A DNA stretch of 64,000 nt from Nitrospirota bacterium. Its GTDB lineage: Bacteria; Nitrospirota; Thermodesulfovibrionia; UBA6902; DSMQ01. The notes beneath the pieces were generated by a model that searched no databases, had not been told where the DNA came from, and was given only the letters and a program-made list of their open reading frames with translations. A program made the translations under genes and the position numbers. Each line of letters begins with the position of its first letter. Within the stretch, counting starts at the first letter, position 1. The stretch is taken from NCBI GenBank assembly GCA_016208965.1, contig JACQXB010000004.1, positions 12,914-76,913 of the forward strand, in the 5' to 3' direction. This document shows positions 3,566 through 60,737 of this stretch, in pieces.

Positions 3566-5227
3566 ATGAAACAAGAAGTTATTGATACTATTTCAAATGC
3601 GATTAAAGGGCTCCGGAAGCAATGGGGATTGAGTGACATACCCCGGATAGATGTAGAAATCCCTAAGAGTGAGGCACACGGTGACATTTTTACTACTCTG
3701 GCAATGAGTATTGCAAAAAGCCTTAAAAAGCCGCCAAGGAAAATAGCAGAAGAGCTTCTCGCTGAGATAAAAAAACAGGAAGGGCCCTTTGAAAAATTTG
3801 AGCTCGCAGGGGCTGGATTTATAAATTTCACATTCAAAAAAGAATATTTTTATCAAGCCCTTGAGAAATTATTAAATGAAGAACACTCCTACCTTAAAAC
3901 AGATATCGGGAAGGACAAAAAGATACAGATTGAATTTGTAAGCGCCAATCCTACAGGACCCCTTCATATTGGGCATGGAAGGGGGGCTGCAGTCGGCAAT
4001 GCCTTAAGTAATATCCTTGCATCAGCAGGGTATGATGTTGAGAGGGAATATTACATAAATGATGCAGGGGTGCAGGTAAAACTCTTGGGACAGTCTGTTT
4101 ATACAAGGTATCAGCAAATGCTTGGGAATAATATTCCTTTTCCTGAAGATGGTTACAAAGGAAGCTATATTGAAACTATTTCAGATGAAATAATCAAAAA
4201 AGCGGGCAATAAGTACTTCAATCAATCCTTTGAAGAGTGTGGAGATTTTTTTACTAACTATTCCTATAAAACAATGCTTGCTGATATCGCAAAAGACCTA
4301 AGAGATTTTGGCATTACCTTTGACAGATGGCAGAGTGAAATGGAGCTTTATGAAAAAGGTAAAGTAACGGATTCTTTAAACACCCTCCACGATAAAAAAT
4401 TTCTCTATGAAAGAGACAGCGCTCTTTGGTTCAGTTCAACCCGATTTGGAGATGATAAAGACAGAGTGGTGGTAAAGAAGGATGGTAAATATACATATTT
4501 TGCCTCTGACATTGCCTATCATAAAGATAAGCTGGATAGGGGGTTTGACACAATTATTGCTCTATGGGGTGCAGACCATCACGGCTATATTCCGAGAATC
4601 AACTCTGTGCTTGAGGCCTTTGATTTTCCAAAGGGAAAATTCAAAGTCATACTTATCCAAATGGTTACACTTCTTAGACACGGGAAACCTGTGCAAATGT
4701 CAAAGAGGGCAGGAGAATTTATAACCCTGCGTGAGGTTATTGATGAGGTTGGAGCTGACACCACAAAATTTATTTTTCTCACAAGACGGCCTGATAGTCA
4801 TCTTGAATTTGACATAGAGGTTGCAAAAGAACAGTCAGCAGAAAATCCTGTTTTCTATGTTCAGTACGCATTTGCAAGGATTTCCAGTATATTCAAGCAG
4901 GCAACGGAGAAGATGCAAGATGCAAGATGCAAGATACAAGAGGTTGACCTTTCAGTTTTAAAAGAACCTGACGAGCTTTCACTAATTAAAAAACTTTTTC
5001 AGTATCCAATGGTATTTGAGGGAACGGTGCTTTCTTTTGAGCCGCATAGGATAACTTATTATTTGCAGGAACTGGCAAAATTATTCCATTCTTATTACAA
5101 CAAGCACAGGGTAATATCTGACGACAAACCACTAACCACTGCGAGACTTTGTCTCTGCAAGGGTGTACAGATTGTCCTTGAAGAAGGATTAAAAATGCTC
5201 GGAGTCAGCGCCCCGGAAAGAATGTGA
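3566..5227 (+). CDS. argS: Arginine--tRNA ligase
   Basis: SANPTGPLHIGHGR (HIGH), MSKR (KMSKS-like), conserved ArgS C-terminal anticodon-binding domain ending in M. Confidence 0.97.
   Translation: MKQEVIDTISNAIKGLRKQWGLSDIPRIDVEIPKSEAHGDIFTTLAMSIAKSLKKPPRKIAEELLAEIKKQEGPFEKFELAGAGFINFTFKKEYFYQALEKLLNEEHSYLKTDIGKDKKIQIEFVSANPTGPLHIGHGRGAAVGNALSNILASAGYDVEREYYINDAGVQVKLLGQSVYTRYQQMLGNNIPFPEDGYKGSYIETISDEIIKKAGNKYFNQSFEECGDFFTNYSYKTMLADIAKDLRDFGITFDRWQSEMELYEKGKVTDSLNTLHDKKFLYERDSALWFSSTRFGDDKDRVVVKKDGKYTYFASDIAYHKDKLDRGFDTIIALWGADHHGYIPRINSVLEAFDFPKGKFKVILIQMVTLLRHGKPVQMSKRAGEFITLREVIDEVGADTTKFIFLTRRPDSHLEFDIEVAKEQSAENPVFYVQYAFARISSIFKQATEKMQDARCKIQEVDLSVLKEPDELSLIKKLFQYPMVFEGTVLSFEPHRITYYLQELAKLFHSYYNKHRVISDDKPLTTARLCLCKGVQIVLEEGLKMLGVSAPERM
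4912..4939. repeat. Heptanucleotide tandem repeat (GATGCAA x3 + GATACAA) inside argS
   Basis: Read directly; translated as MQDARCKIQ in the argS frame. Confidence 0.9.
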
Positions 5228-6283: not shown

Positions 6284-6604
6284 GTCAAGACAAAGGGGGT
6301 CAATTCTTTACTAAAGTCAAGACAAAGGGTCAAACAAAGGGGGCTGGTCAAACAAAGGGGGTCAACAAACAAAGGGGGTCAATCAACAAACAAAGGGGGT
6401 CAACAAACAAAGGGGGTCAATCAACAAACAAAGGGGGTCAATTCTTTACTAATGACAAAGCACATTTTAAATTTTAAAAACTATCAATATGAAAGAATTG
6501 ACCCCCTTTGTTTTTCCCCCCCCTTTGTTTTTCCCAATTGACCCCCATGTTTTTCCCACATGTTTTTCCCATGATTGACCCCCATGTTTTTCCCATGTTT
6601 TTAC
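6284..6604. repeat. Iteron-like array: about 8 direct ACAAAGGGGGTCAA units, an AT-rich spacer, then inverted TTGACCCCC(TTTG/ATG)TTTTTCCC units
   Basis: Units at about 6290, 6322, 6334, 6351, 6369, 6389, 6407 and 6427 with 18-20 bp spacing. AT-rich spacer 6450-6495. Inverted units at about 6497, 6537 and 6566. Confidence 0.85.
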
Positions 6605-8444: not shown

Positions 8445-8556
8445 ATCAAGGAAAAGGAAGAAATTACAGAAGTGCTGAAGGTCCCAAGATAAGTTATATT
8501 TCAAAAAAGAAGAAAAGAAAAAAATAAGAAAAGGGGTCAAGCCAATGGCTCGTAGA

Positions 8557-8628
8557 GGGTTCAAGTGTTAGAATTAATCTTATCTTCACTTGAACCCTTA
8601 AATCCTTGAATCCTCGAACCCTAAATAT
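8557..8628. repeat. 11-bp stem hairpin (GGGTTCAAGTG/CACTTGAACCC) overlapping five tandem octamers CTYRAAYC
   Basis: Read directly upstream of hisC; octamers at 8589, 8597, 8605, 8613 and 8621. Confidence 0.8.
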
Positions 8629-8630
8629 TT

Positions 8631-9713
8631 ATGATACAGGCGCCAGAACACATAAAGAGCATTAAGCAGTATATTCCGGGTAAGCCAATAGAGGAGCTGG
8701 AGAGGGAACTTGGCATTACAGGTTCTGTAAAACTTGCATCCAATGAGAACCCCCTCGGTCCATCTCCTCTTGCGCTTAAAGCTATACGAAAGGCTCTTCA
8801 GGGCATCAATAGATATCCTGATGGAACCTGTTATTATCTTAAAAACGCCTTATCTCAGAGATTGAATGTGAACCCAGATGAGATTTTGTTTGGGAATGGT
8901 TCCAACGAAATCATTGAATTAGCTGTGCGAACATTTCTTGGCCCGGCAGATGAGGCAATAATGGCTCATCCATCTTTTGCTGTCTATTCAATGATTGTTC
9001 AGGCAGGAGGCGGCAAAAACATAGTTGTTCCGCTTAAAGACTGGCGGCATGACCTTGGGGTTATGACGTCATGTATGACAGAAAAAACAAAGATTATATT
9101 TATAGCAAACCCCAATAATCCCACGGGCACAATTAATACAAGGGCAGAGATGGATGCCTTTATGAAAAGGGTTCCTCAGGATGTGCTTGTCATAGTTGAT
9201 GAGGCATATTATGAATATGTAACATCACCTGAATATCCTGAGAGTATGAGGTATTTTAGAGAGGGCAGAGATATATTGATTCTTCGGACATTTTCAAAGA
9301 TATACGGTCTTGCAGGATTAAGAATCGGGTATGGGATCGGAAGGGCAGATTTGATTACGGACATGAATAGGGTTCGTCAGCCATTTAATGTTAATTCAAT
9401 AGCTCAGCAGGCGGCACTTGCTGCACTTTCTGATGAAAAGCACATTGTAAAAGCAAAAAAGATTAATGAAAAGGGTAAGGCTTATATTTATAAAGGGTTA
9501 AAAGCTATGAAACTGAATTATATACCTACAGAGGCAAATTTTATATATATTGTTTTGGAAAATGGAAATGCCTTTGAGTTATATGAAAAACTTCTCAATC
9601 AAGGTGTTATTGTAAGACCTATGGGAGCGCAGGCGCTAAGGGTAACAATAGGACTGCCGAGAGAAAATAAAAGGTTTATAGAAACACTGAAACAAATTCA
9701 AAATGTAAAATGA
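8631..9713 (+). CDS. hisC: Histidinol-phosphate / aromatic aminotransferase
   Basis: LASNENPLGPSP, NPNNPTG, PLP lysine context RTFSKIYGLAGLRIGY. Confidence 0.93.
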   Translation: MIQAPEHIKSIKQYIPGKPIEELERELGITGSVKLASNENPLGPSPLALKAIRKALQGINRYPDGTCYYLKNALSQRLNVNPDEILFGNGSNEIIELAVRTFLGPADEAIMAHPSFAVYSMIVQAGGGKNIVVPLKDWRHDLGVMTSCMTEKTKIIFIANPNNPTGTINTRAEMDAFMKRVPQDVLVIVDEAYYEYVTSPEYPESMRYFREGRDILILRTFSKIYGLAGLRIGYGIGRADLITDMNRVRQPFNVNSIAQQAALAALSDEKHIVKAKKINEKGKAYIYKGLKAMKLNYIPTEANFIYIVLENGNAFELYEKLLNQGVIVRPMGAQALRVTIGLPRENKRFIETLKQIQNVK

Positions 9714-9794
9714 AAAATGCAAAATTAAGGAGAATTTTTTATTCAACAATTTTGAATTTTAATTTTTAAATTTTAAATTCTCAGGGGGGATGTT

Positions 9795-10823: not shown

Positions 10824-10848
10824 CAGTGAATAGTGAACAGTGAATAGT
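10824..10848. repeat. Heptamer tandem repeat YAGTGAA x3.5
   Basis: cagtgaa tagtgaa cagtgaa tagt, directly after the aroF stop. Confidence 0.85.
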
Positions 10849-11910: not shown

Positions 11911-13240
11911 AGTCACACCAAAAGGTTCGCTCCGCGGTGAGATTGTCCCTCCACCAGATAAATCTATCTCCCATAGGGCAGTGATACTTGGCTCTCTTTC
12001 AGAGGGGGAAAGCACCATAAAAAACTTTCTCCGTGCTGAAGACCCCATTAGAACAATTAAGGCATTTCAACAAATGGGTATTGAGATAACAGAAGTCAAA
12101 AGTCAAAAGTCAAAAGTCAAAAGTCAGAACACAGATTTAATAATTAATGGCAAAGGACTAACAGGGTTAAGAACGCCTCAGGATATTATAGACTGTGGGA
12201 ATTCAGGGACAACTATGAGGCTTTTGTGTGGAGTGCTTGCAGGTCAACCATTCCGAGCTGCACTTACAGGAGATGCATCTTTAAGAATTAGACCCATGCA
12301 GAGGGTTATTACACCCCTTACAGAGATGGGAGCAAGAATTACATCAGAGGCAAAGAGCTATCCTCCCCTTACTATTCATGGCGGAAGTTTAAGACCTATA
12401 TATTACAAATCTCCTGTAGCAAGTGCGCAGGTAAAATCCGCAATCCTTCTTGCAGGGCTTTATTGTGATGGAGTTACAAAAATCAGAGAGCCTGATAAAT
12501 CCCGTGACCATACTGAAAGGATGCTTAGGGCTCAGGGCGCAGAGGTTGAAATAAAAGACCTTGAGGTTAGTATCAAAGGCACCCTGAACCAGGAGCGGTT
12601 CAGGGGCAGGGCACACCTTAAGCCCTTAGATATAACAATCCCCGGAGATTTTTCATCTGCAGCGTTTTTTATTGTTGCAGGCATTATTGTGCCAGGGTCA
12701 GAGATATCAATTAAAAATGTTGGTATAAACCCAACAAGAACAGGGCTTTTAGATATTCTAAAAACGATGGGTGCAGAGATAAAGATTGAAAATGAACATG
12801 AACAATCAGGAGAGCCTGCTGCAGATTTATATGTAAAATACTCGCAACTTAAAGGGATAGATATAGAAGGCGATTTAGCACTCAGGGCTATTGATGAGTT
12901 TCCTATTATTTGCGTTGCTGCATCAGTTGCCTCTGGCATAACAAAGATAACAGGCGCAGGGGAGTTAAGGGTTAAGGAGTCAGATAGAATTGCCTCAATG
13001 GCAAAGGAACTAAGAAAGATGGGTGTCACTGTTGAAGAACTAAAAGATGGCATTATTATTGAGGGAAAAGACAGATTAAATTCTGCAATTATCCAGAGTC
13101 ATGGCGACCACAGGGTTGCAATGTCTATGGCAGTAGCAGGACTTTTTGCTCAGGGCGAGACAATTATTGAGGATACAGAATGTGTGAATACATCATTTCC
13201 GGGGTTTATAGAGATGTTAAAGAAACTGCAGAGGGGTTAA
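11897..13240 (+). CDS. aroA: 3-phosphoshikimate 1-carboxyvinyltransferase (EPSP synthase)
   Basis: PPDKSISHRAVILGSL, GNSGTTMRLL, RVKESDR. The ORF opens at 11831, but homology starts near the TTG at 11897 (MDVIKVTPKG), overlapping the tyrA stop. Confidence 0.93.
   Translation: MDVIKVTPKGSLRGEIVPPPDKSISHRAVILGSLSEGESTIKNFLRAEDPIRTIKAFQQMGIEITEVKSQKSKVKSQNTDLIINGKGLTGLRTPQDIIDCGNSGTTMRLLCGVLAGQPFRAALTGDASLRIRPMQRVITPLTEMGARITSEAKSYPPLTIHGGSLRPIYYKSPVASAQVKSAILLAGLYCDGVTKIREPDKSRDHTERMLRAQGAEVEIKDLEVSIKGTLNQERFRGRAHLKPLDITIPGDFSSAAFFIVAGIIVPGSEISIKNVGINPTRTGLLDILKTMGAEIKIENEHEQSGEPAADLYVKYSQLKGIDIEGDLALRAIDEFPIICVAASVASGITKITGAGELRVKESDRIASMAKELRKMGVTVEELKDGIIIEGKDRLNSAIIQSHGDHRVAMSMAVAGLFAQGETIIEDTECVNTSFPGFIEMLKKLQRG
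12093..12127. repeat. Heptamer tandem repeat AAGTCAA x5 inside aroA
   Basis: Read directly; translated as KSQKSKVKSQ in the aroA frame. Confidence 0.9.
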
Positions 13241-30993: not shown

Positions 30994-31278
30994 TTTTATT
31001 CAAGCCCTTTCCATTCCATGAACAAAGCCGCGACCTCCCGTGCTTTGCCGTTTATCCCCACCGCAAAAGACATTGTCATTAAAAGCCGTTGTAAACTATG
31101 CCCATCCACCCTTTTATTTTATCAAAATGACATGGGGAATGGACAGCAGTAATTGATTCTATAAAGCAAGGTTCCTTTTCACATATACGTCATGCCATAC
31201 AACGTGGTTTTTTTTCATGTCTTATAAAAATTGAACGCTGAACGCAGAGAGCATGGAGCAAAGCGTTTTAAATCTCAC

Positions 31279-31313
31279 TGCTCATTGCTCATTGCTTTTG
31301 CCTCATTGCTATT
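31279..31313. repeat. GCTCATT-type heptamer array (i)
   Basis: tgctcat tgctcat tgctttt gcctcat tgctatt, overlapping the stop of the TPR gene. Confidence 0.8.
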
Positions 31314-32187
31314 CCTCTATCCCCTTCCATTCAAAGAATAACTGCACTGCCATTTCCGCATCAGGGTTATCAGGCGCAATGCCTTTTATCACTTTCTTAT
31401 CCTTTGATATCCGCCAAGCTATCTCAAGCGCGGCAAAAAGATAGCTATTATAAAGCCGGGATAAGTTTGTGGGATGCATTGTCTCTGACATAATCTTTTT
31501 CCTGATATTTTCAGGAGAGGTCTGGTAGCTGTCGTCTATTTTTGCAAGTATCCTTGCCTGCTCAAGCGCCTCTCCTTTTCTGCCTGTAAGGAGGTAGTGC
31601 ATTGCAATCGCATACCTCATGGGCGCATTTACAGGAGCTGCGGCAACAGCCTTTGCAAATTCTTTTTCTGCAAGCCGGGCATTACTGATATTTCTGTCAT
31701 AAAGCTTTCCGAGCGCCAGATGATAATCAGGATTCGCAGGCTCAAGATAAACCGCTTTTTTAAGGTATCTCGCTGAGTTTTCAAAAGCCTCTTTGGCTGA
31801 TACGGCTCCGGCAGGAAGGGGTTCAGCAACAGCGTCCATGCTTTCTGCCCATCTTCCGAGCATTGAATATATATCAGACAGTCCCTTATGATAGATAGAC
31901 TTTGACGGAACAAGAGCGGATGCTTTTTTCAGGGATAAGAGGGCGTCATTGTAATCAGATATTGTATCACCTGAGATACCCTTCATATCAAAATATTCTG
32001 TGGATTTATCATCAAGGATATAAGCCACCCTGCTATGATAATAGTCTGCAATAAGCATTCTGACGGGAAACGAGAGCAGAACGGCAATAAACAAAGCAAT
32101 GAGCAATGAGTTAAAAGATAGCAATGAGGTTAAAGGCAGCCTCGTTGCTCGTTGCTCGTTGCTCGTTGCTCGTTGCTCATTGCTCAT
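31309..32187 (-). CDS. TPR-repeat protein with an N-terminal TM anchor
   Basis: TM LLIALFIAVLL; several TPR-like helices (YLEPANPDYHLALGKLY and others). The N-terminus MSNEQRATSNEQRAT is encoded by heptamer repeats. Confidence 0.7.
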   Translation of the reverse strand: MSNEQRATSNEQRATRLPLTSLLSFNSLLIALFIAVLLSFPVRMLIADYYHSRVAYILDDKSTEYFDMKGISGDTISDYNDALLSLKKASALVPSKSIYHKGLSDIYSMLGRWAESMDAVAEPLPAGAVSAKEAFENSARYLKKAVYLEPANPDYHLALGKLYDRNISNARLAEKEFAKAVAAAPVNAPMRYAIAMHYLLTGRKGEALEQARILAKIDDSYQTSPENIRKKIMSETMHPTNLSRLYNSYLFAALEIAWRISKDKKVIKGIAPDNPDAEMAVQLFFEWKGIEE

Positions 32188-32230
32188 TGCTCATTGCTCA
32201 TTGCTCATTGCTCGTTGCTCATTGCTCATT
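32096..32230. repeat. GAGCAAT/GCTCRTT heptamer array (ii): short forward part, then about 13 inverted-orientation units
   Basis: agcaatgagcaatgag at 32096-32111; ctcgttg/ctcattg units at 32141-32230. Confidence 0.9.
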
Positions 32231-32635
32231 TTACGCTTGATCACGTTGTTTCCTAATGGCTATTTTGAGACCACCTATTATCCGGGAGACCTCAATCGCC
32301 AGGTCGCTTATATCCTTAAACTCTTCTGATGTAATATATCCAACATCAAGGGCTGCATAAAGTTGCGAACGGAGTTCAGCGCAAGATGCCTTTGCAATAA
32401 CAATGAATTGATGAAATTCTGCTCTACTACCACGCTCAAAGCCTTCAGCAAGATTTGACATGATTGATACAGCGGCTCTTTGAATTTGTTCGCGCAGTCC
32501 AAAATCCCTTGAGAATGCTCCCTTTCCAGTCATATGGTAAACATGTTTTGTTAATTTTCTGGCCTTTTGCCATGCAACAAGATCCTCAAACTTTTCAACT
32601 TTCATTTTTCTTCCTACTCGTTGCTCATTGCTCAT
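32231..32635 (-). CDS. Four-helix-bundle protein (23S rRNA intervening-sequence protein / Avd-like family)
   Basis: [13 protein letters not shown]...[42 protein letters not shown]. The likely true start is MKVEKF at 32605; the first 10 codons are heptamer-repeat sequence. Confidence 0.85.
32607..32634. repeat. GCTCRTT heptamer array (iii)
   Basis: ctcgttg ctcattg ctcattg cttgccc. Confidence 0.8.
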
Positions 32636-34190
32636 TGCTTGCCCGCCGGTCTCTTGGAGGGCTCATTACTCTTTGCTCTATGTTCAAGGTTGCATATGTT
32701 AACGCTGCTATTACAGTCAGGAGCAAAGCATTTGCCGGAATTCGCATGTTGAAATCCGTAAAACTGTGAACTGCTATTGCTACGCATGAGGCAAGCCCGG
32801 ATGCAGCCATGCACTTCACAAAATTATTATGCCTCTGACGCCATGCCTTTATAATCTTATAGAAAAAAAAGAAGAGCATCGTAATGACAATCATAAACCC
32901 TGCGATGCCTGTATCAGTAAAAATCTCTATATAGTCATTATGCGCATGCTCGTACAAGAATCGCGAGCGTCCAGTTTGATACTGAAGGTATATGTTCTCA
33001 AATGTACCGAGACCTGTCCCGAATACAGGGAAGTCCCTGACCATGTTAATTGTATCTTTCCAGATATCCGTCCGAGCTATTTTGCCTTCTTCTCCTATCT
33101 CTTCAAATCTGTCTTCTATTCTGTCCCAGCCTGCAATTAAAACCACTGATAATATCAGAATTCCTGCCATAGCAATAACGCCTGTTTTTTTTCTTAATGT
33201 TCTTCTGGTGCGGATTAGCAATGTGAAAAAGAGCATAGATGCTGTAAACCCTATTATCCCTCCCCTTGAAAGGCTTATGAACAAGACACCAGTCATTCCC
33301 ATAACAGCAAGAGACAGAAGGGTAATCGGCATAAGACTGCCGCTGACTGAGAGATTGGCAATCCTCTTGCTTAATGATAGATCAGGCAGTTCCTTTATTG
33401 TTGATGTCTTATAAAGGAGAAGCCCAATCGCCAGCGGTATTGCCATCTCCATGTATCCTGCAAAATGAGCGTGGCCTATATAGGGCCCCCAGATGTGACC
33501 CATATTTGAATTCAGACCTTCGCTCACAGGGTAAAACCAGAAAAGCCTGCCGTTCCATGTCATCTTCTGAACCACTGCAAAAACCGCAAGAAAACAACCC
33601 ATGTAAACTATGGCACGGGCAAGGCTGTTTACCTGCGGCTTTGTTTTATAGTGGTTAATTATCACCAGAAAAATTACAGTGTAAGCAGTGAGCTTGAAGA
33701 TATCATCTATTGTTGCAGACTGATAAATGCTTATGGTGCGCCATGTGCCTGCCATATCACCCGCAAATGTCTTATATAGCCTGCTTGTGGAAGGTGATAA
33801 CAGAGAGAGCAGATAGTCAGGCAAGGGGATAATCTGAAAGACTGCAATTAATATAAGGGCAGCAGGAAAAATGAGAATGCTCATTGCTCGTTGCTCATTG
33901 CTCATTGCTCGTTGCTCATTGCTCGTTGTTGCTCTTTGCTCATTGCTCTTTGCTCGTTGTATCAGCCATGCGCCGAATATTATGAATGCCATTATCTCCA
34001 TAACGGCTATTGACCAGTCTTGAACAGTTCCAAAAGCAAGAGGGGTGAATATCAAAAGCAGGACAATGCCCTTCTCTATCACAGCATTAAAAAATCCCCC
34101 CTCACCCCCCTTTAGTAAAGGGGGGATGGGGGGATTTTCTTTAAAGAGATTATTACTCTTCTTTAAAAAATTCATACTCTCTGAAGCCAT
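32625..34190 (-). CDS. O-antigen ligase-like (Wzy_C) membrane protein
   Basis: [20 protein letters not shown] motif and about 11 TM helices. The start is uncertain because a palindromic element lies in the first 35 codons. An internal SNEQRA repeat stretch is present. Confidence 0.75.
33879..33960. repeat. GCTCRTT heptamer array (iv), about 11 units, inside the ligase-like ORF
   Basis: Translated as [24 protein letters not shown] between TM helices. Confidence 0.9.
34089..34138. repeat. Palindromic AAAATCCCCC...GGGGGATTTT element
   Basis: aaaaatcccccctcacccccctttagtaaaggggggatggggggatttt. Confidence 0.9.
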
Positions 34191-45343: not shown

Positions 45344-46268
45344 TACTCACAGCATCTTTTACTACATCAATCTTTACAGGTAATGTCCCAAAATAGTCTC
45401 CGTCTATCTGGACATGGACATTGCCCTTAGAGGATATTTCAAGCTCTGAGAATTTTCCATAGAAGACATCTTTAAAATTTAAATGCCTTTTCATAATAAC
45501 GCCAAACACAAATCTGAGCAGGTCCATCCTCGTACTGCCTTTAAAAAGGCAGAGGTCAAGCGTTGGCTCTGTAAGGGATGCCCGTGGGGTTACTTTAAAA
45601 TAACCACCATAACAGCTTGCCTTACTAACAACTGCTGTATATCCTGTAGCTACACCCTCTGGAACCTTAATTTCAATTAAAGGCGGATTATATTTTATCA
45701 GGCTATTAACCCCTGAAATGATATGCGCACCCTTGCCTGATATTCTCTTGATATTCTCATTTAACCTAAAAACTGCTTCGCCATCAAACCCTATGCCCGC
45801 CATTAAACAGAAGTGACGAGTGACGAGTGACGAGCGACGAGTAATAACTATCCTTCCGAGTGATACCTTCCGTGGTGTGCCTGTTAATGCCGCATTAACT
45901 GCCTTTTCAATACGCTCTGGAATGCCGAGTTCTTTGGCTAAGACATTTGTTATTCCAACAGGAAGTAAGGCAAGCGGGATGTCCTTCCCTTTCTGGGCAT
46001 ATCCTTCTGATGAGAGTACGCCGTTTATGACTTCATTGAAAGTACCGTCTCCTCCTGCAACAATAATGAGGTCGGTCTTTGTTCCCCTATGAATTGCCTC
46101 AACTGATTCCTTTGCAAACCGGGTTGCGTCACCTTTTTTTTGTGTGATGAATGTTGAAAGCGTGACCTTATCTTTTAATAATTTCTGAGCCTTCTCTATT
46201 GACCTTAGCGCCCCGCCTCCTGCAATAGGGTTTGCAATAAGCCTGACCTTCACGGAGCAAAAATTCAT
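45333..46268 (-). CDS. Diacylglycerol/lipid kinase family protein (YegS/BmrU-like)
   Basis: IIVAGGDGTFNEVINGV, LPVGITN motifs. Confidence 0.85.
   Translation of the reverse strand: MNFCSVKVRLIANPIAGGGALRSIEKAQKLLKDKVTLSTFITQKKGDATRFAKESVEAIHRGTKTDLIIVAGGDGTFNEVINGVLSSEGYAQKGKDIPLALLPVGITNVLAKELGIPERIEKAVNAALTGTPRKVSLGRIVITRRSSLVTRHFCLMAGIGFDGEAVFRLNENIKRISGKGAHIISGVNSLIKYNPPLIEIKVPEGVATGYTAVVSKASCYGGYFKVTPRASLTEPTLDLCLFKGSTRMDLLRFVFGVIMKRHLNFKDVFYGKFSELEISSKGNVHVQIDGDYFGTLPVKIDVVKDAVSIVW
45813..45840. repeat. Heptamer tandem repeat GTGACGA x3 + GCGACGA inside the lipid kinase gene
   Basis: Read directly; translated as RRSSLVTRH on the minus strand. Confidence 0.9.
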
Positions 46269-54582: not shown

Positions 54583-54657
54583 TACAAGATTGAAAACAAA
54601 TCACAATCATAATGAATTTTAAAATTAGATATCATGTATCGTGTATCGTGTATCATG
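54567..54657. repeat. Two heptamer arrays (GATGCAG GATGCAT GATACAA GATTGAA; TATCATG TATCGTG TATCGTG TATCATG) at the hisA 3' end and in the hisA-hisF spacer
   Basis: Arrays at 54567-54594 and 54630-57, in opposite orientation to each other. Confidence 0.85.
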
Positions 54658-56807: not shown

Positions 56808-56996
56808 GTCATTCCCGCATGCTTTTAGCAGGAATCTGTCCCCCCTTAGTAAGGGGGGATTTAAGGGGGGTCTGGATTCCTGCTTTCGCAGGAATCGACA
56901 TGAGCCATTGGCTCACAAAGGAACACGAAAATATCCTCCCCCCTTTGTAAAATCCCCCTCTATTCCCCCTTTACTAAAGGGGGATGAAGGGGGATA
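56808..56996. repeat. Composite intergenic repeat: GTCATTCCCGC-type unit, GGATTCCTGC/GCAGGAATC palindrome, GAGCCATTGGCTC palindrome and an AAAATCCCCC...GGGGGAT element
   Basis: Read directly. ORF 56806..56997 is just its translation (SPLSKGGFKGG...IPPLLKGDEGG). Confidence 0.85.
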
Positions 56997-57050
56997 AGGT
57001 TTTGCCTGAATTTCAGAAATTCCTTCTTGATCGTGGCATTGTTCCACCTA

Positions 57051-58891: not shown

Positions 58892-60651
58892 ACATCCCCG
58901 ACGTTTCGGGACTCCGCACCCTTTGATGGTCTGAGCCCGCTCAGGCTCAGCTGTATAGTCTTATTGCCATTCCACTCATTTATTATAGGTATAAATGCGG
59001 CATCTACAAATCGTGAATCGTCTTGTTCTAATAAATCACCCATATTAAATCCAATCGTATCCATGCTTATATTTTTTTGTCTTAACCTCATCTTCAGGTG
59101 ATTATTACCAACAACCCTCGGTTCAATAACCTCTATGCCCTTAATGCCCATTACAGGCTCTTCGTTTGAATTGCCAAACGGCTCAAGCAGATTTAATTCC
59201 TTAACAAGATTGAAGTTTACCTCAGAAAGGTCAACACATGCATCTATTTCAAGCATCGGGGTAAGGGCATCATTCGTGAGGTCTCTTTCAACTATCCGGT
59301 CTACTTGACTCTTAAAAGCAACAAGATTCTCCTCGCGAAGTTTAATGCCTGCTGCATAGGTATGCCCGCCAAAGCTAAGAAGCAGGCCTGCGCATTCTGC
59401 AATACATTTATAAAGATCAAATGCCGGAATGCTCCTTGCTGAACCCTTTGCAATAGTCCCGATATTCGTCGGGATAATTGAGAAAAGAAATGCCGGTCTG
59501 TAAAACTCCTCTGCAAGACGTGAGGCAACAATGCCAATTACCCCTTCATGCCACTCGGGTGAATATAATATTATGGCTTTGTCAATGTTGTTGCTTCCTA
59601 TCATCTCAAGTGCAGAGTTATATACCACTCCTTCAATTCTCTGCCTCTTTATGTTCTGTTCTTCAAGGAAGCCTGCTATACCTTTTGCTCGTGCCTCATC
59701 ATGAGTTAAAAAAAGCTCTACAACCTCACTTGCATCCCCGAGTCTGCCTGCTGCATTAATTCGGGGTACTACTGTATAAGAAAGTAACACTGATTTGACC
59801 TCTCTATTGTTCAAGCCAGCCACCTCTTTTAATGCCTGTATCCCGACACTGCATGTGTTGTTTAGTTTTTTAAGCCCGTATGCTGCAAGGATTCTATTTT
59901 CTCCTGTAAGCGGAACAGAATCCGCAATTGTCCCTATGGCAACCAAATCAAGTAGATTCTCTGATTCTGCATCCTGTATCCTGCATCCTGTATCCTGTAG
60001 TAATGCCTGTGCCAATTTATAGGCAACACCAACGCCTGCAAGATACTTAAACGGATAATTTGAATCATTCCTGCGTGGATTTATAACAGCTATAGCCTGT
60101 GGTAATTTTTGATTTAATAGTGTTCCGTTAACTAACGGCGGCTCGTGATGGTCAGTAATAATAACATCTATACCATGAGAGCGGGCTTCTAATACTTCTT
60201 TTTCAGAACTTATTCCACAATCTACTGTAATAAGAAGGCTTGCACCACAGTCTTTTGCCTTTTGTATTCCTTTTTGGCTTACCCCGTAACCATCTGTAAG
60301 CCTGTTAGGAATATGATAATAGGTCTTTAAACCTAATCCCCTTAATACAGAAACTAAGAGTGCTGTAGATGTAACGCCGTCTGCATCGTAATCACCATGA
60401 ACAAGTATGCTCTCATTTCTGTCTAAAGCAACCTTTATCCTCTCAACAGCAATTTTCATATCAGGCATTAGAAAAGGGTCATGAAGGCTTTCAGGGGATG
60501 GAGAAAGAAAGGTTTTTATTGACTCAGGGTCTTTAATCCCCCTGTTTACAAGGATCTGAGCAAATGCTGGAGAAATAGATGCCTTGCGCGAAAAATACTC
60601 TAAAAATTCTTTATTGGTTCTATTAACTAACCATCGTCTGTGCACTGTCAA
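58888..60651 (-). CDS. recJ: Single-stranded-DNA-specific exonuclease RecJ
   Basis: VHGDYDADGVTS, ITVDCG, ITDHH, GGH...AG. The 3' end overlaps the next gene (ATGA). Confidence 0.93.
   Translation of the reverse strand: MTVHRRWLVNRTNKEFLEYFSRKASISPAFAQILVNRGIKDPESIKTFLSPSPESLHDPFLMPDMKIAVERIKVALDRNESILVHGDYDADGVTSTALLVSVLRGLGLKTYYHIPNRLTDGYGVSQKGIQKAKDCGASLLITVDCGISSEKEVLEARSHGIDVIITDHHEPPLVNGTLLNQKLPQAIAVINPRRNDSNYPFKYLAGVGVAYKLAQALLQDTGCRIQDAESENLLDLVAIGTIADSVPLTGENRILAAYGLKKLNNTCSVGIQALKEVAGLNNREVKSVLLSYTVVPRINAAGRLGDASEVVELFLTHDEARAKGIAGFLEEQNIKRQRIEGVVYNSALEMIGSNNIDKAIILYSPEWHEGVIGIVASRLAEEFYRPAFLFSIIPTNIGTIAKGSARSIPAFDLYKCIAECAGLLLSFGGHTYAAGIKLREENLVAFKSQVDRIVERDLTNDALTPMLEIDACVDLSEVNFNLVKELNLLEPFGNSNEEPVMGIKGIEVIEPRVVGNNHLKMRLRQKNISMDTIGFNMGDLLEQDDSRFVDAAFIPIINEWNGNKTIQLSLSGLRPSKGAESRNVGDV
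59964..59998. repeat. Heptamer tandem repeat ATYCTGY x5 inside recJ
   Basis: attctgc atcctgt atcctgc atcctgt atcctgt, translated as LQDTGCRIQDAES. Confidence 0.9.
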
Positions 60652-60664
60652 TTAAAAATAGCAC

Positions 60665-60737
60665 GATTCATGATACACGATACATGATTCATGATTCATG
60701 ATGAAAATTTTCCTATCCTGTATCTTGTATCATGCAT
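60665..60737. repeat. Two opposed heptamer arrays (GATWCAY x6, then TATCNTG x3) between secF and recJ
   Basis: Arrays at 60665-60706 and 60714-60734. Confidence 0.85.

Follow-up and report, generated by a model that had tools for sequence, protein, structure and literature searches.

Tandem arrays of 7-nucleotide (7-nt) units lie both between and within the genes of a 64-kb stretch of contig JACQXB010000004.1 (hereafter the window), which belongs to a Nitrospirota (Thermodesulfovibrionia) metagenome-assembled genome (MAG). Four of these arrays sit inside aroA, argS, recJ and a YegS-type lipid kinase gene. We consider it probable, at roughly 0.7, that they are arrays of simple sequence repeats (SSRs) of a slippage type that have been filtered by reading frame, stop codons and protein structure. 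Under this explanation, a slippage-type process that makes tandem units of 7 and sometimes 8 nt would be unusually active in the Thermodesulfovibrionia lineage. Arrays would arise and change genome-wide, and only a filtered subset would survive within genes. The surviving sites would be loops that tolerate extra hydrophilic residues, such as β-hairpin tips, loops between structural elements and linkers, and the surviving units would either lack stop codons in each of the three frames that an array traverses or be point-substituted where a stop would fall in frame. Given that the net length has to be a multiple of 3 nt, the usual state within a gene would be about 1 + 3 units (4.x copies, adding 7 or 8 amino acids (aa)). 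An array at a permissive site may then be a long-lived, self-renewing hotspot in which contraction, expansion and point mutation homogenize or replace the unit (concerted evolution), and the encoded loop would turn hypervariable within an otherwise conserved enzyme. The encoded peptides are probably near-neutral passengers.

A period-7 excess concentrated outside coding sequence

Arrays were called with Tandem Repeats Finder (TRF), perfect arrays were counted at 2.5 copies or more, and the chance level was taken from dinucleotide shuffles. TRF detects 13 period-7 arrays in the window, with 3.3-12.9 copies. Ten perfect period-7 arrays are observed against an expectation of 0.07, and for periods 5, 6 and 8-15 the counts equal or come close to those in the shuffles. 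For comparison we used 1.34 Mb of control loci from unrelated taxa, which were matched by the full AroA alignment profile through universal motifs (CGNSGTTM, SRDHTERM) and which, among the matches listed, represent many phyla at no more than 56% identity. These loci contain eight perfect period-7 arrays, or approximately 0.6 per 100 kb, compared with 15.6 per 100 kb in the window, which is about 25 times as many. One cyanobacterial control locus (L068, Dapis) has six arrays in 21 kb. The loci of the closest relatives contain 20 perfect period-7 arrays per 233 kb, a density that is partly ascertained because these loci are centered on aroA. The best protein matches are to named Nitrospirae/Thermodesulfovibrionia MAGs, and the closest orthologs are only 68-75% identical.

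Open reading frames (ORFs) make up 88.5% of the window and fully contain 5 of the 13 heptamer arrays. The other eight lie in the remaining 11.5%, in non-coding sequence or at gene boundaries, and array density is approximately 12-fold higher outside coding sequence. The arrays thus have the properties by which heptanucleotide long SSRs are recognized: tandem 5- to 11-nt units in at least about three copies, an excess over chance and whole-unit variation among related genomes. With 8 of 13 outside genes, they also share the predominantly intergenic placement of the short tandemly repeated repetitive (STRR) sequences of cyanobacteria. The four coding arrays noticed in the original prediction have 4.4-4.9 copies each and are open in all three frames of the coding strand; in reversed orientation, the aroA and kinase arrays would carry TGA. 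Beyond these four, the window holds two more coding arrays, in a Wzy_C ligase gene and at the N-terminus of a TPR gene, and about eight arrays that are intergenic or at gene ends. A single unit per genome serving all arrays was considered and rejected, as the four coding arrays of the window use three to four different units. The arrays consist of units in direct tandem, vary in copy number and lack terminal inverted repeats and flanking duplications, and they therefore do not resemble miniature inverted-repeat transposable elements, repetitive extragenic palindromic elements or small dispersed repeats (SDRs). No transposase or integrase gene adjoins the coding arrays.

Repeats are prone to mis-assembly, and Logan contigs do break in CAATGAG arrays longer than 80 nt, so we weighed whether the arrays are artefacts of assembly or sequencing. 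The four coding arrays, however, are only 31-35 nt long, which is below read length, and the long ORFs that contain them are kept open. The RecJ and kinase proteins, including the array residues, are identical in three to four independent contigs. Four separate sequencing runs (SRR12113400-405) reproduce the flanks of the CAATGAG arrays exactly, four same-species Logan contigs are identical to the window up to their ends inside the long arrays of this unit, and dozens of unrelated assemblies from relatives have arrays at the same sites. Independent assemblies thus carry the same arrays, and an artefact is effectively refuted.

Array-encoded loops in AroA, RecJ, the lipid kinase and ArgRS

The original prediction described perfect heptamer arrays inside intact ORFs of essential genes. 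Both the sequence and TRF place all four arrays where it had located them, in long ORFs whose Pfam identities agree with the gene names: EPSP_synthase for aroA, Arg-tRNA synthetase domains for argS, DAGK_cat and YegS_C for the kinase gene, and DHH, DHHA1 and RecJ_OB for recJ. The argS array is exactly as it had been described, but the aroA array has 4.9 copies rather than 5, and the fourth kinase unit and the first recJ unit are mismatched. Likewise, the genes are core genes and intact, but for recJ and the yegS-type kinase gene it is conservation, and not known essentiality, that can be claimed.

The aroA array (12092..12133, + strand) consists of GAAGTCA, four copies of AAAGTCA and GAACACA, and it encodes EVKSQKSKVKSQNT at a β-hairpin tip of EPSP synthase. 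TRF reports it at 12093-12126 as AAGTCAA in 4.9 copies with a 100% match, the fifth unit ending in G. In an AlphaFold model of AroA with a mean predicted local distance difference test (pLDDT) score of 90.3, the array corresponds to residues 64-75 at the tip between strands 61-66 and 77-84, and residues 68-74 have a pLDDT below 50. Most of 120 aligned orthologs have an insertion at exactly the same hairpin tip, and about one quarter have a short loop without a repeat. The loop peptides are lineage-specific and periodic by 7 or 8 aa (for example, KSQKSKV, HRTQNTE, LKTQNSK, VRSQKSE and FKGSRVQG). Matched against themselves, 31 loops repeat with period 7 and about 12 with period 8, every other period being found in no more than 6 loops, and their lengths cluster at 6-8, 15-16 and 22-27 aa.

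The periodicity is present in DNA as well as in protein. Nucleotide arrays were confirmed in the aroA DNA of relatives (13 look-ups and 80 metagenome loci), with units that include RAAGTCA (L081), GAACACA (L082), AAAYTCA (L087 and L089) and the octamers GTTCAAAR (L083 and L098) and GGTTCAAG (L086). In these 80 further orthologs, the DNA of loops of 13-17 aa mostly has period 7 and sometimes period 8, and clear repeats have about four to five copies. The array-encoded stretches are missing from distant homologs and solved structures, and the relatives that have the peptide are periodic at the nucleotide level. The same peptide without nucleotide periodicity in unrelated taxa, which would have spoken against true arrays, was thus not seen.

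Comparison of closely related aroA genes shows how the arrays change. The genes of L085 and L086 are 97.6% identical in nucleotide sequence; L085 has one GGTTCGAG where L086 has three copies of GGTTCAAG plus GGGTCAAG, a difference of 24 nt, or exactly three octamer units, between identical flanks. Changes by multiples of three units are what the original prediction had expected of orthologs if the arrays vary. Within the subclade of these two loci, at 93-96% nucleotide identity, the loop is encoded by an octamer array, an AAAYTCA heptamer array or a nine-unit composite (CGTAATG/CGCAGAA/CGCGGTA). Array contents therefore differ among aroA genes that are 93-98% identical, indicating that an array changes at a much higher pace than the gene around it. 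This does not agree with the earlier proposal that slippage must be rare; what is rare is the survival of changes by other than a multiple of three units. The companion proposal, that out-of-frame states are counter-selected, is borne out by the roughly 12-fold lower array density per kb of coding sequence, by loop classes that lie about 7-8 aa apart and by the one pair that differs by three units.

Across lineages, the aroA units stand in one register and differ from one another by one or two changes or by a single-base indel (AAAGTCA, RAAGTCA, AAAYTCA, GAACACA, GAACGCA, AAAGTTCA and AGGGTTCA), and the 3'-terminal unit of the window's aroA array is a single GAACACA of the L082 type. Related units in one register, together with this end unit, suggest an old array that has drifted and been re-homogenized in situ, and they do not fit independent insertions. 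These observations bear on a rival explanation that we regard as unlikely, in which a dedicated copy mechanism generates the arrays. A small mobile element or recombination system would insert or convert pre-formed heptamer or octamer blocks, or insertion and excision would leave 7- to 8-bp target duplications, and the sites within genes would be insertion hotspots. The retention of an ancestral-type 3' unit and the clean change in unit number between L085 and L086 argue against it, as does the absence of terminal inverted repeats, flanking duplications and an adjoining transposase or integrase. On the other side, very different arrays occupy genes that are 93-96% identical, the AroA and RecJ loops of different genomes share similar units (e.g., NTEHRxQ and NSKLKTQ), and the AroA hairpin tip also accepts an unrelated palindromic mini-element. 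Similarity of units may, however, reflect shared constraints, namely freedom from stop codons and a hydrophilic peptide.

AroA of the window has a second insertion, of 27 nt, at 12582-12605 (residues ~227-235, TLNQERFRG, pLDDT below 50). It lies at another β-hairpin tip, and of the 44 closest orthologs shown, 43 lack it. The insertion is palindromic, CCCTGAACC-AGGAGC-GGTTCAGGG, with arms similar to the octamer unit GGTTCAAG, and at this second site the AroA ortholog P0007 has the octamer-array peptide FKGSRVQG. A palindromic element with G/C runs at ~34096-34133 (minus-strand reading CCCCCCATCCCCCCTTTACTAAAGGGGGGTGAGGGGGG) is translated in frame as 13 residues at the N-terminus of the Wzy ORF. 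Near-identical peptides of this G/C palindrome occur at the AroA hairpin tip of other genomes (P0053, P0052, L112, L115 and L129), with the array present or absent. The element looks like a miniature mobile element that is tolerated in coding loops and is distinct from the arrays. Related G5/C5 repeats are found at 6316-6602 and 56977-56999.

The recJ array (59964..59999, - strand) consists of alternating AGGATAC and AGGATGC on the coding strand in 4.7 copies. The encoded peptide, QDTGCRIQDAES, lies in the DHH domain, in a loop that leads from a helix to a strand. On the forward strand, 59964-59998 reads ATTCTGC, ATCCTGT, ATCCTGC, ATCCTGT, ATCCTGT, the first unit having one mismatch. The insert adds 8 aa relative to the RecJ structure 8y30. 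Among 121 orthologs, the array-free form 'LIHD-SRLEDLL' with a loop of 6 aa is present in 10, and a loop of 13 aa, exactly 7 aa longer, is present in 61. Ortholog loop peptides include NTEHRAQNTE, NSKLKTQNS and ESGVRSQESE, and RecJ proteins that are 96-99% identical outside the loop differ in loop content.

The lipid-kinase array (45812..45842, - strand) has the coding-strand unit TCGTCAC/CGTCACT in 4.4 copies and encodes ITRRSSLVTRH at a β-hairpin turn; 45813-45840 comprises three copies of GTGACGA and one GCGACGA, so that the fourth unit has one mismatch. The insert adds 8 aa relative to the DgkB structure 2qv7. A tight hairpin, 'GRI-N-GRYF', is found in 103 of 121 kinase orthologs, and a subclade that includes the window has inserts of the 'VITRHSSPITRYF' or 'VITRxSSxxTRYF' type. 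The argS array (4910..4941, + strand) is AAGATGC in 4.6 copies (three GATGCAA and one GATACAA at 4912-4939) and encodes EKMQDARCKIQE in the DALR anticodon-binding domain, where a linker of variable length follows the first helix. Compared with solved structures, this linker is 4 aa longer (3fnr) or 2 aa shorter (2zue), giving no clear net insertion, and no periodic peptide was seen at this site in homologs of at most 51% identity, the closest from the representative library. A rule that three added units give 7 aa in every gene was rejected: it fits RecJ (6 versus 13 aa), but AroA gains 8-10 aa, the kinase gains 8 aa and ArgRS shows no clear insertion. These differences between genes are uneven because partial units and neighboring codons also change.

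Gain or loss of a single 7-nt unit shifts the reading frame, as the original prediction had pointed out, and might therefore switch genes off and on as in the phase variation of contingency loci. Heptanucleotide SSRs reportedly do so for Haemophilus HMW1A expression (PMC8262952). For the arrays studied here we find this reading very improbable. The genes encode single-copy housekeeping enzymes rather than surface or restriction-modification functions, and the arrays lie mid-gene in loops rather than in a promoter or at a 5' end. Moreover, the gene is open across the array in all of the hundreds of orthologs examined, loop lengths are grouped at intervals of about 7-8 aa rather than evenly spread, and the RecJ and kinase proteins do not vary among the independent contigs mentioned above.

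CAATGAG arrays and arrays between genes

Further evidence for filtering comes from a unit that is not free of stop codons. On the coding (minus) strand, CAATGAG carries TGA in one frame. The Wzy array (33878..33959, - strand) consists of 11 CAAYGAG/CAAAGAG units in the ORF of a Wzy_C O-antigen ligase and encodes 27 residues between hydrophobic segments. The NGA triplet is CGA or AGA in all four units in which it falls in frame, and all five TGA-bearing units are out of frame. A 21-nt block, AGCAATG-AGCAACG-AGCAATG (peptide SNEQRAM), is present twice, and TRF scores period 21 above period 7. Duplication of this patched block shows growth in three-unit steps. Coding minisatellites have units that are multiples of 3; here the primary unit is 7 or 8 nt, and the Wzy array has a secondary 21-nt super-repeat.

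Further CAATGAG arrays follow on the same strand. At the junction between the Wzy gene and a gene for a four-helix bundle (23S rRNA IVP), 3.3 copies of CAATGAG (32617..32639, - strand) provide the TGA stop of Wzy and an upstream ATG of the IVP gene. Between the IVP stop and the TPR gene lie 12.9 units (32141..32230, - strand), of which the part at 32141-32187 encodes the TPR N-terminus, MSNEQRATSNEQRAT... Five of the six upstream units of this array are CAATGAG, and all five of the last units, inside the TPR ORF, are CAACGAG. The CAATGAG unit thus supplies the Wzy stop and candidate ATG starts for both the IVP and TPR genes. A further array of this type, with 5.3 copies (31274..31310, - strand), directly follows the TPR stop, and inverted CTCATTG copies are located at 32095-32130 within the TPR ORF.

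The IVP gene (32231-32635, - strand) encodes a solitary four-helix bundle (Pfam 23S_rRNA_IVP, with a weak bAvd-like match) between the O-antigen ligase and TPR genes. CAATGAG arrays lie on either side of it, and alternative ATGs give gene calls of 134 or 124 aa. A tblastn search of ~1.9 Mb of relatives' and control loci found no other IVP gene.

The remaining arrays are intergenic or at gene ends. Between secF and recJ (60662..60737), six CACGATW/CATGATW units (60662-60702) are accompanied by inverted GATACAR-type units (~60714-60737) with which they could pair, and TATCGTG in 3.6 copies (54630..54654) matches, in reverse complement, the CACGATA unit at 60662. AGTGAAT is repeated 3.4 times just past the DAHP synthase stop (10825..10848). 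Ahead of the DAHP synthase gene is an array pair (9700..9779, + strand), in which AAAATGT in 3.7 copies (9700-9725) overlaps the end of an aminotransferase gene and AATTTTA in 4.6 copies (9748-9779) ends 16 nt before the DAHP synthase ATG. An octamer array, CTTGAACC in 4.2 copies with an 80% match (8589..8622), is the reverse complement of the GGTTCAAG unit from relatives' aroA loops, and an inverted GGGTTCAAG copy lies upstream of it. In two places, then, inverted arrays of the same family are a few dozen nt apart, GATACAN-type units at 60662-60737 and GGGTTCAAG versus CTTGAACC at 8540-8625, upstream of the aminotransferase gene. Transcripts of such inverted arrays could form imperfect hairpins.

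Two further observations concern repeats outside these arrays. The unit CGTAATG occurs at non-homologous sites in different genomes: one genome has an array of it where an acetyl-CoA synthetase gene ends (3' end), and in another it belongs to the composite array of the aroA loop (L082 13413-13440, L088 2419-2449). Dense longer tandem repeats occupy 6316-6602 between two divergent ORFs of the window, with units of 17, 21 and 38 nt; CAAACAAAGGGGGTCAA is one of these, and after it come arrays of CCCCCTTTGTTTTTCCC and CCCATGTTTTT that look complementary to it.

The array pair upstream of DAHP synthase differs in behavior from the fast-changing coding arrays. Four to five AAAATGY units followed by five AATTTTA units are conserved in position and nearly in unit among genomes whose proteins are only about 70% identical (L082 4627-4730; L083 5209-5316 and 4018-4144; L088 112-146; L084 8056-8090). 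The pair may mark a regulatory or translation-related element of an aromatic amino-acid operon. That the window, L082, L083 and L088 all have it just ahead of the DAHP synthase start is consistent with another explanation, in which the arrays are functional nucleic-acid elements (binding sites, sites of translational or transcriptional pausing, or hairpin regulators when inverted) or the hypervariable loops are themselves selected. The potential hairpins between secF and recJ and near 8540-8625, the start and stop codons provided by CAATGAG arrays, and the regulatory role proposed for TAACTGA arrays upstream of starts in Beggiatoaceae (PMC4679880) also agree with it. Other observations argue against it. 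Many orthologs are array-free and the protein is otherwise conserved, and the four coding arrays have different units, so that no single binding factor is implied. The encoded AroA segment is a disordered hairpin tip away from conserved motifs, and surface variability has no obvious benefit in cytoplasmic housekeeping enzymes. An Rfam scan of the whole window gave no matches and hence no family that overlaps any array. As an account of the arrays in general we consider functional elements quite unlikely; this reading may fit some of the intergenic arrays, but not the coding ones.

Origin of the arrays and their relation to known repeats

Several points weigh against filtered slippage as the complete explanation. 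The first concerns the route into genes. On a template without a repeat, one slippage event cannot take an array from one unit to four, and intermediates of two and three units are out of frame, so the gain needs either out-of-frame intermediates or a multi-unit event. For argS, and probably for aroA, these intermediates constitute a fitness valley whose crossing is hypothetical. If the molecular event is replication slippage or unequal recombination, as we suppose, deletions from four units to one and changes from four to seven would be single misalignment events. Parsimony in one well-sampled aroA subclade favors loss (four to one) over gain. In addition, the ArgS comparison covers homologs of 51% identity or less, and there the array is not a clear insertion.

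The second point concerns tempo. Near-perfect arrays with quite different units in genes that are 93-96% identical demand fast turnover, and this turnover is read from comparisons between genomes. A metagenome scan for aroA flanks with a variable gap returned no matches, and each array-bearing protein is alone in its 90% cluster.

The third point is the recurrence and partial conservation of units. Certain intergenic arrays keep both their place and their unit from genome to genome, a hint that at least this subset has a function. Moreover, units recur at non-homologous sites more often than expected by chance. CAATGAG occurs at four to five sites within 3 kb, GATRCAN-type units are present in two coding arrays (argS and recJ) and in two or three intergenic ones (including those at 54630 and 60662), and GGTTCAAG-type units are found in both coding and intergenic arrays of different genomes. 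The argS GATGCAA, the recJ GATRCAG and two intergenic GATACAC arrays are separated by zero or one mismatch, a closeness that random heptamer pairs reach in only 1.5% of cases. Units shared in this way are not predicted by slippage that acts purely locally. Within the 64 kb, such repeat-family behavior is confined to the CAATGAG and GATRCAN types (four to five sites each), and the other units are unique. The identical or near-identical units at non-homologous sites, with CAATGAG flanking the IVP gene on both sides, are also what the copy mechanism discussed above for aroA would predict.

A broader version of that idea is that a dedicated, possibly horizontally shared system generates or propagates arrays and is common also to cyanobacterial STRRs and Beggiatoaceae TAACTGA repeats. 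We hold this to be unlikely. An array-writing system that makes multi-unit blocks in one step would let coding arrays move from one in-frame state to the next with no frameshifted stage between them. Unit families would likewise be spread by it between loci, some arrays being co-opted as start and stop donors, upstream translation or regulatory elements, or hairpins, and the IVP/Avd-like four-helix-bundle gene, with its CAATGAG arrays on both sides, would be a candidate for an associated factor or for the cargo.

Filtered slippage, which we continue to favor, places the arrays near several known repeats. STRR heptamers were reportedly described from heterocystous cyanobacteria by Mazel et al. 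in 1990. The arrays resemble them in being heptamers of a few to a dozen copies, mainly intergenic, with dispersed families that share a unit, and the density at the Dapis locus is similar. They differ in belonging to another phylum, in having units other than CCCCAGT, TTGGTCA and CAACAGT, and in that STRRs are dispersed families while the units here are mostly distinct. The term STRR-like in the original prediction is therefore apt for the kind of repeat, a heptanucleotide tandem array of the STRR/long-SSR kind, but not for the host, which is not a heterocystous cyanobacterium, or for the units; given a Thermodesulfovibrionia host and non-cyanobacterial units, it denotes analogy and not membership. 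Cyanobacterial SDRs and other mini-insertions were reportedly described by Elhai et al. in 2008 (Genome Res) as very short repeats that are tolerated in frame at permissive sites inside conserved genes. SDRs are fixed, hairpin-capable units of 21-27 nt that are inserted as a block and are not tandem heptamers, and the G/C palindrome in Wzy and AroA is closer to them than the arrays are.

Heptanucleotide repeats are the most abundant class of long SSRs in many bacteria, and polymerase slippage has been proposed as their source (Mrazek et al. 2007, as relayed in PMC4679880 and PMC4692102). The survey, according to PMC4679880, also observed that the units in coding regions are multiples of three. 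The arrays of the window are like these LSSR5-11 repeats (Mrazek, Guo & Shah 2007) in their tandem 7-nt units, genome-specific period-7 excess, mostly intergenic placement, lack of an established function and proposed slippage origin. Compared with the survey as it is relayed, they differ in having non-triplet units mid-gene in housekeeping enzymes, sites kept among orthologs across a class, length classes of 7-8 aa, concerted units and stop patching.

Two further systems were compared. Marine Beggiatoaceae have TAACTGA arrays, of which few are in ORFs and those mostly at protein termini (MacGregor 2015, PMC4679880). Likewise, their heptamers are concentrated just upstream of starts, stop codons dictate orientation within ORFs, and periodic peptides of 7 aa were noted. 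In contrast to the arrays here, which have diverse units in mid-protein loops at ortholog-conserved sites, Beggiatoaceae have one dominant genome-wide unit and their ORF cases are at the termini of non-homologous proteins. GGGNATC heptamers of Xanthomonas and Nostoc show a preference for four units that was attributed to G-quadruplex formation (Rehm et al. 2015, PMC4692102). The heptamer, the preference for about four units and the under-representation in coding sequence are shared, but those repeats are G-rich, whereas the arrays here are A-rich or mixed without G-tracts, and four units within genes are explained by frame-keeping 1 + 3. A literature search for heptamer repeats together with Nitrospirota or Thermodesulfovibrio gave, among the results listed, no paper that combines them, and Nitrospirota are not mentioned in PMC4679880 or PMC4692102.

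The heptanucleotide SSR or STRR is thus itself known. What we rate as new here is the lineage, the mid-gene sites conserved among orthologs, the loop classes of 7-8 aa, the concerted evolution of units and the patching of stop codons. The unexplained phenomenon of heptamer-rich genomes is extended from cyanobacteria, Beggiatoaceae and xanthomonads to Nitrospirota, and the contrast between three-unit steps in genes and one-unit steps between genes offers a tractable test of a slippage-only origin. In AroA, RecJ and YegS-type kinases, the array loops naturally mark sites where insertions are permitted; they are also fast-evolving strain markers for uncultured Nitrospirota and a known source of noise in alignment and annotation. 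More generally, a codon-blind mutational bias can shape proteins: slippage in steps of 7 or 8 nt, filtered by frame, stop codons and fold, would give rise to quantized hypervariable loops in conserved enzymes throughout a class.

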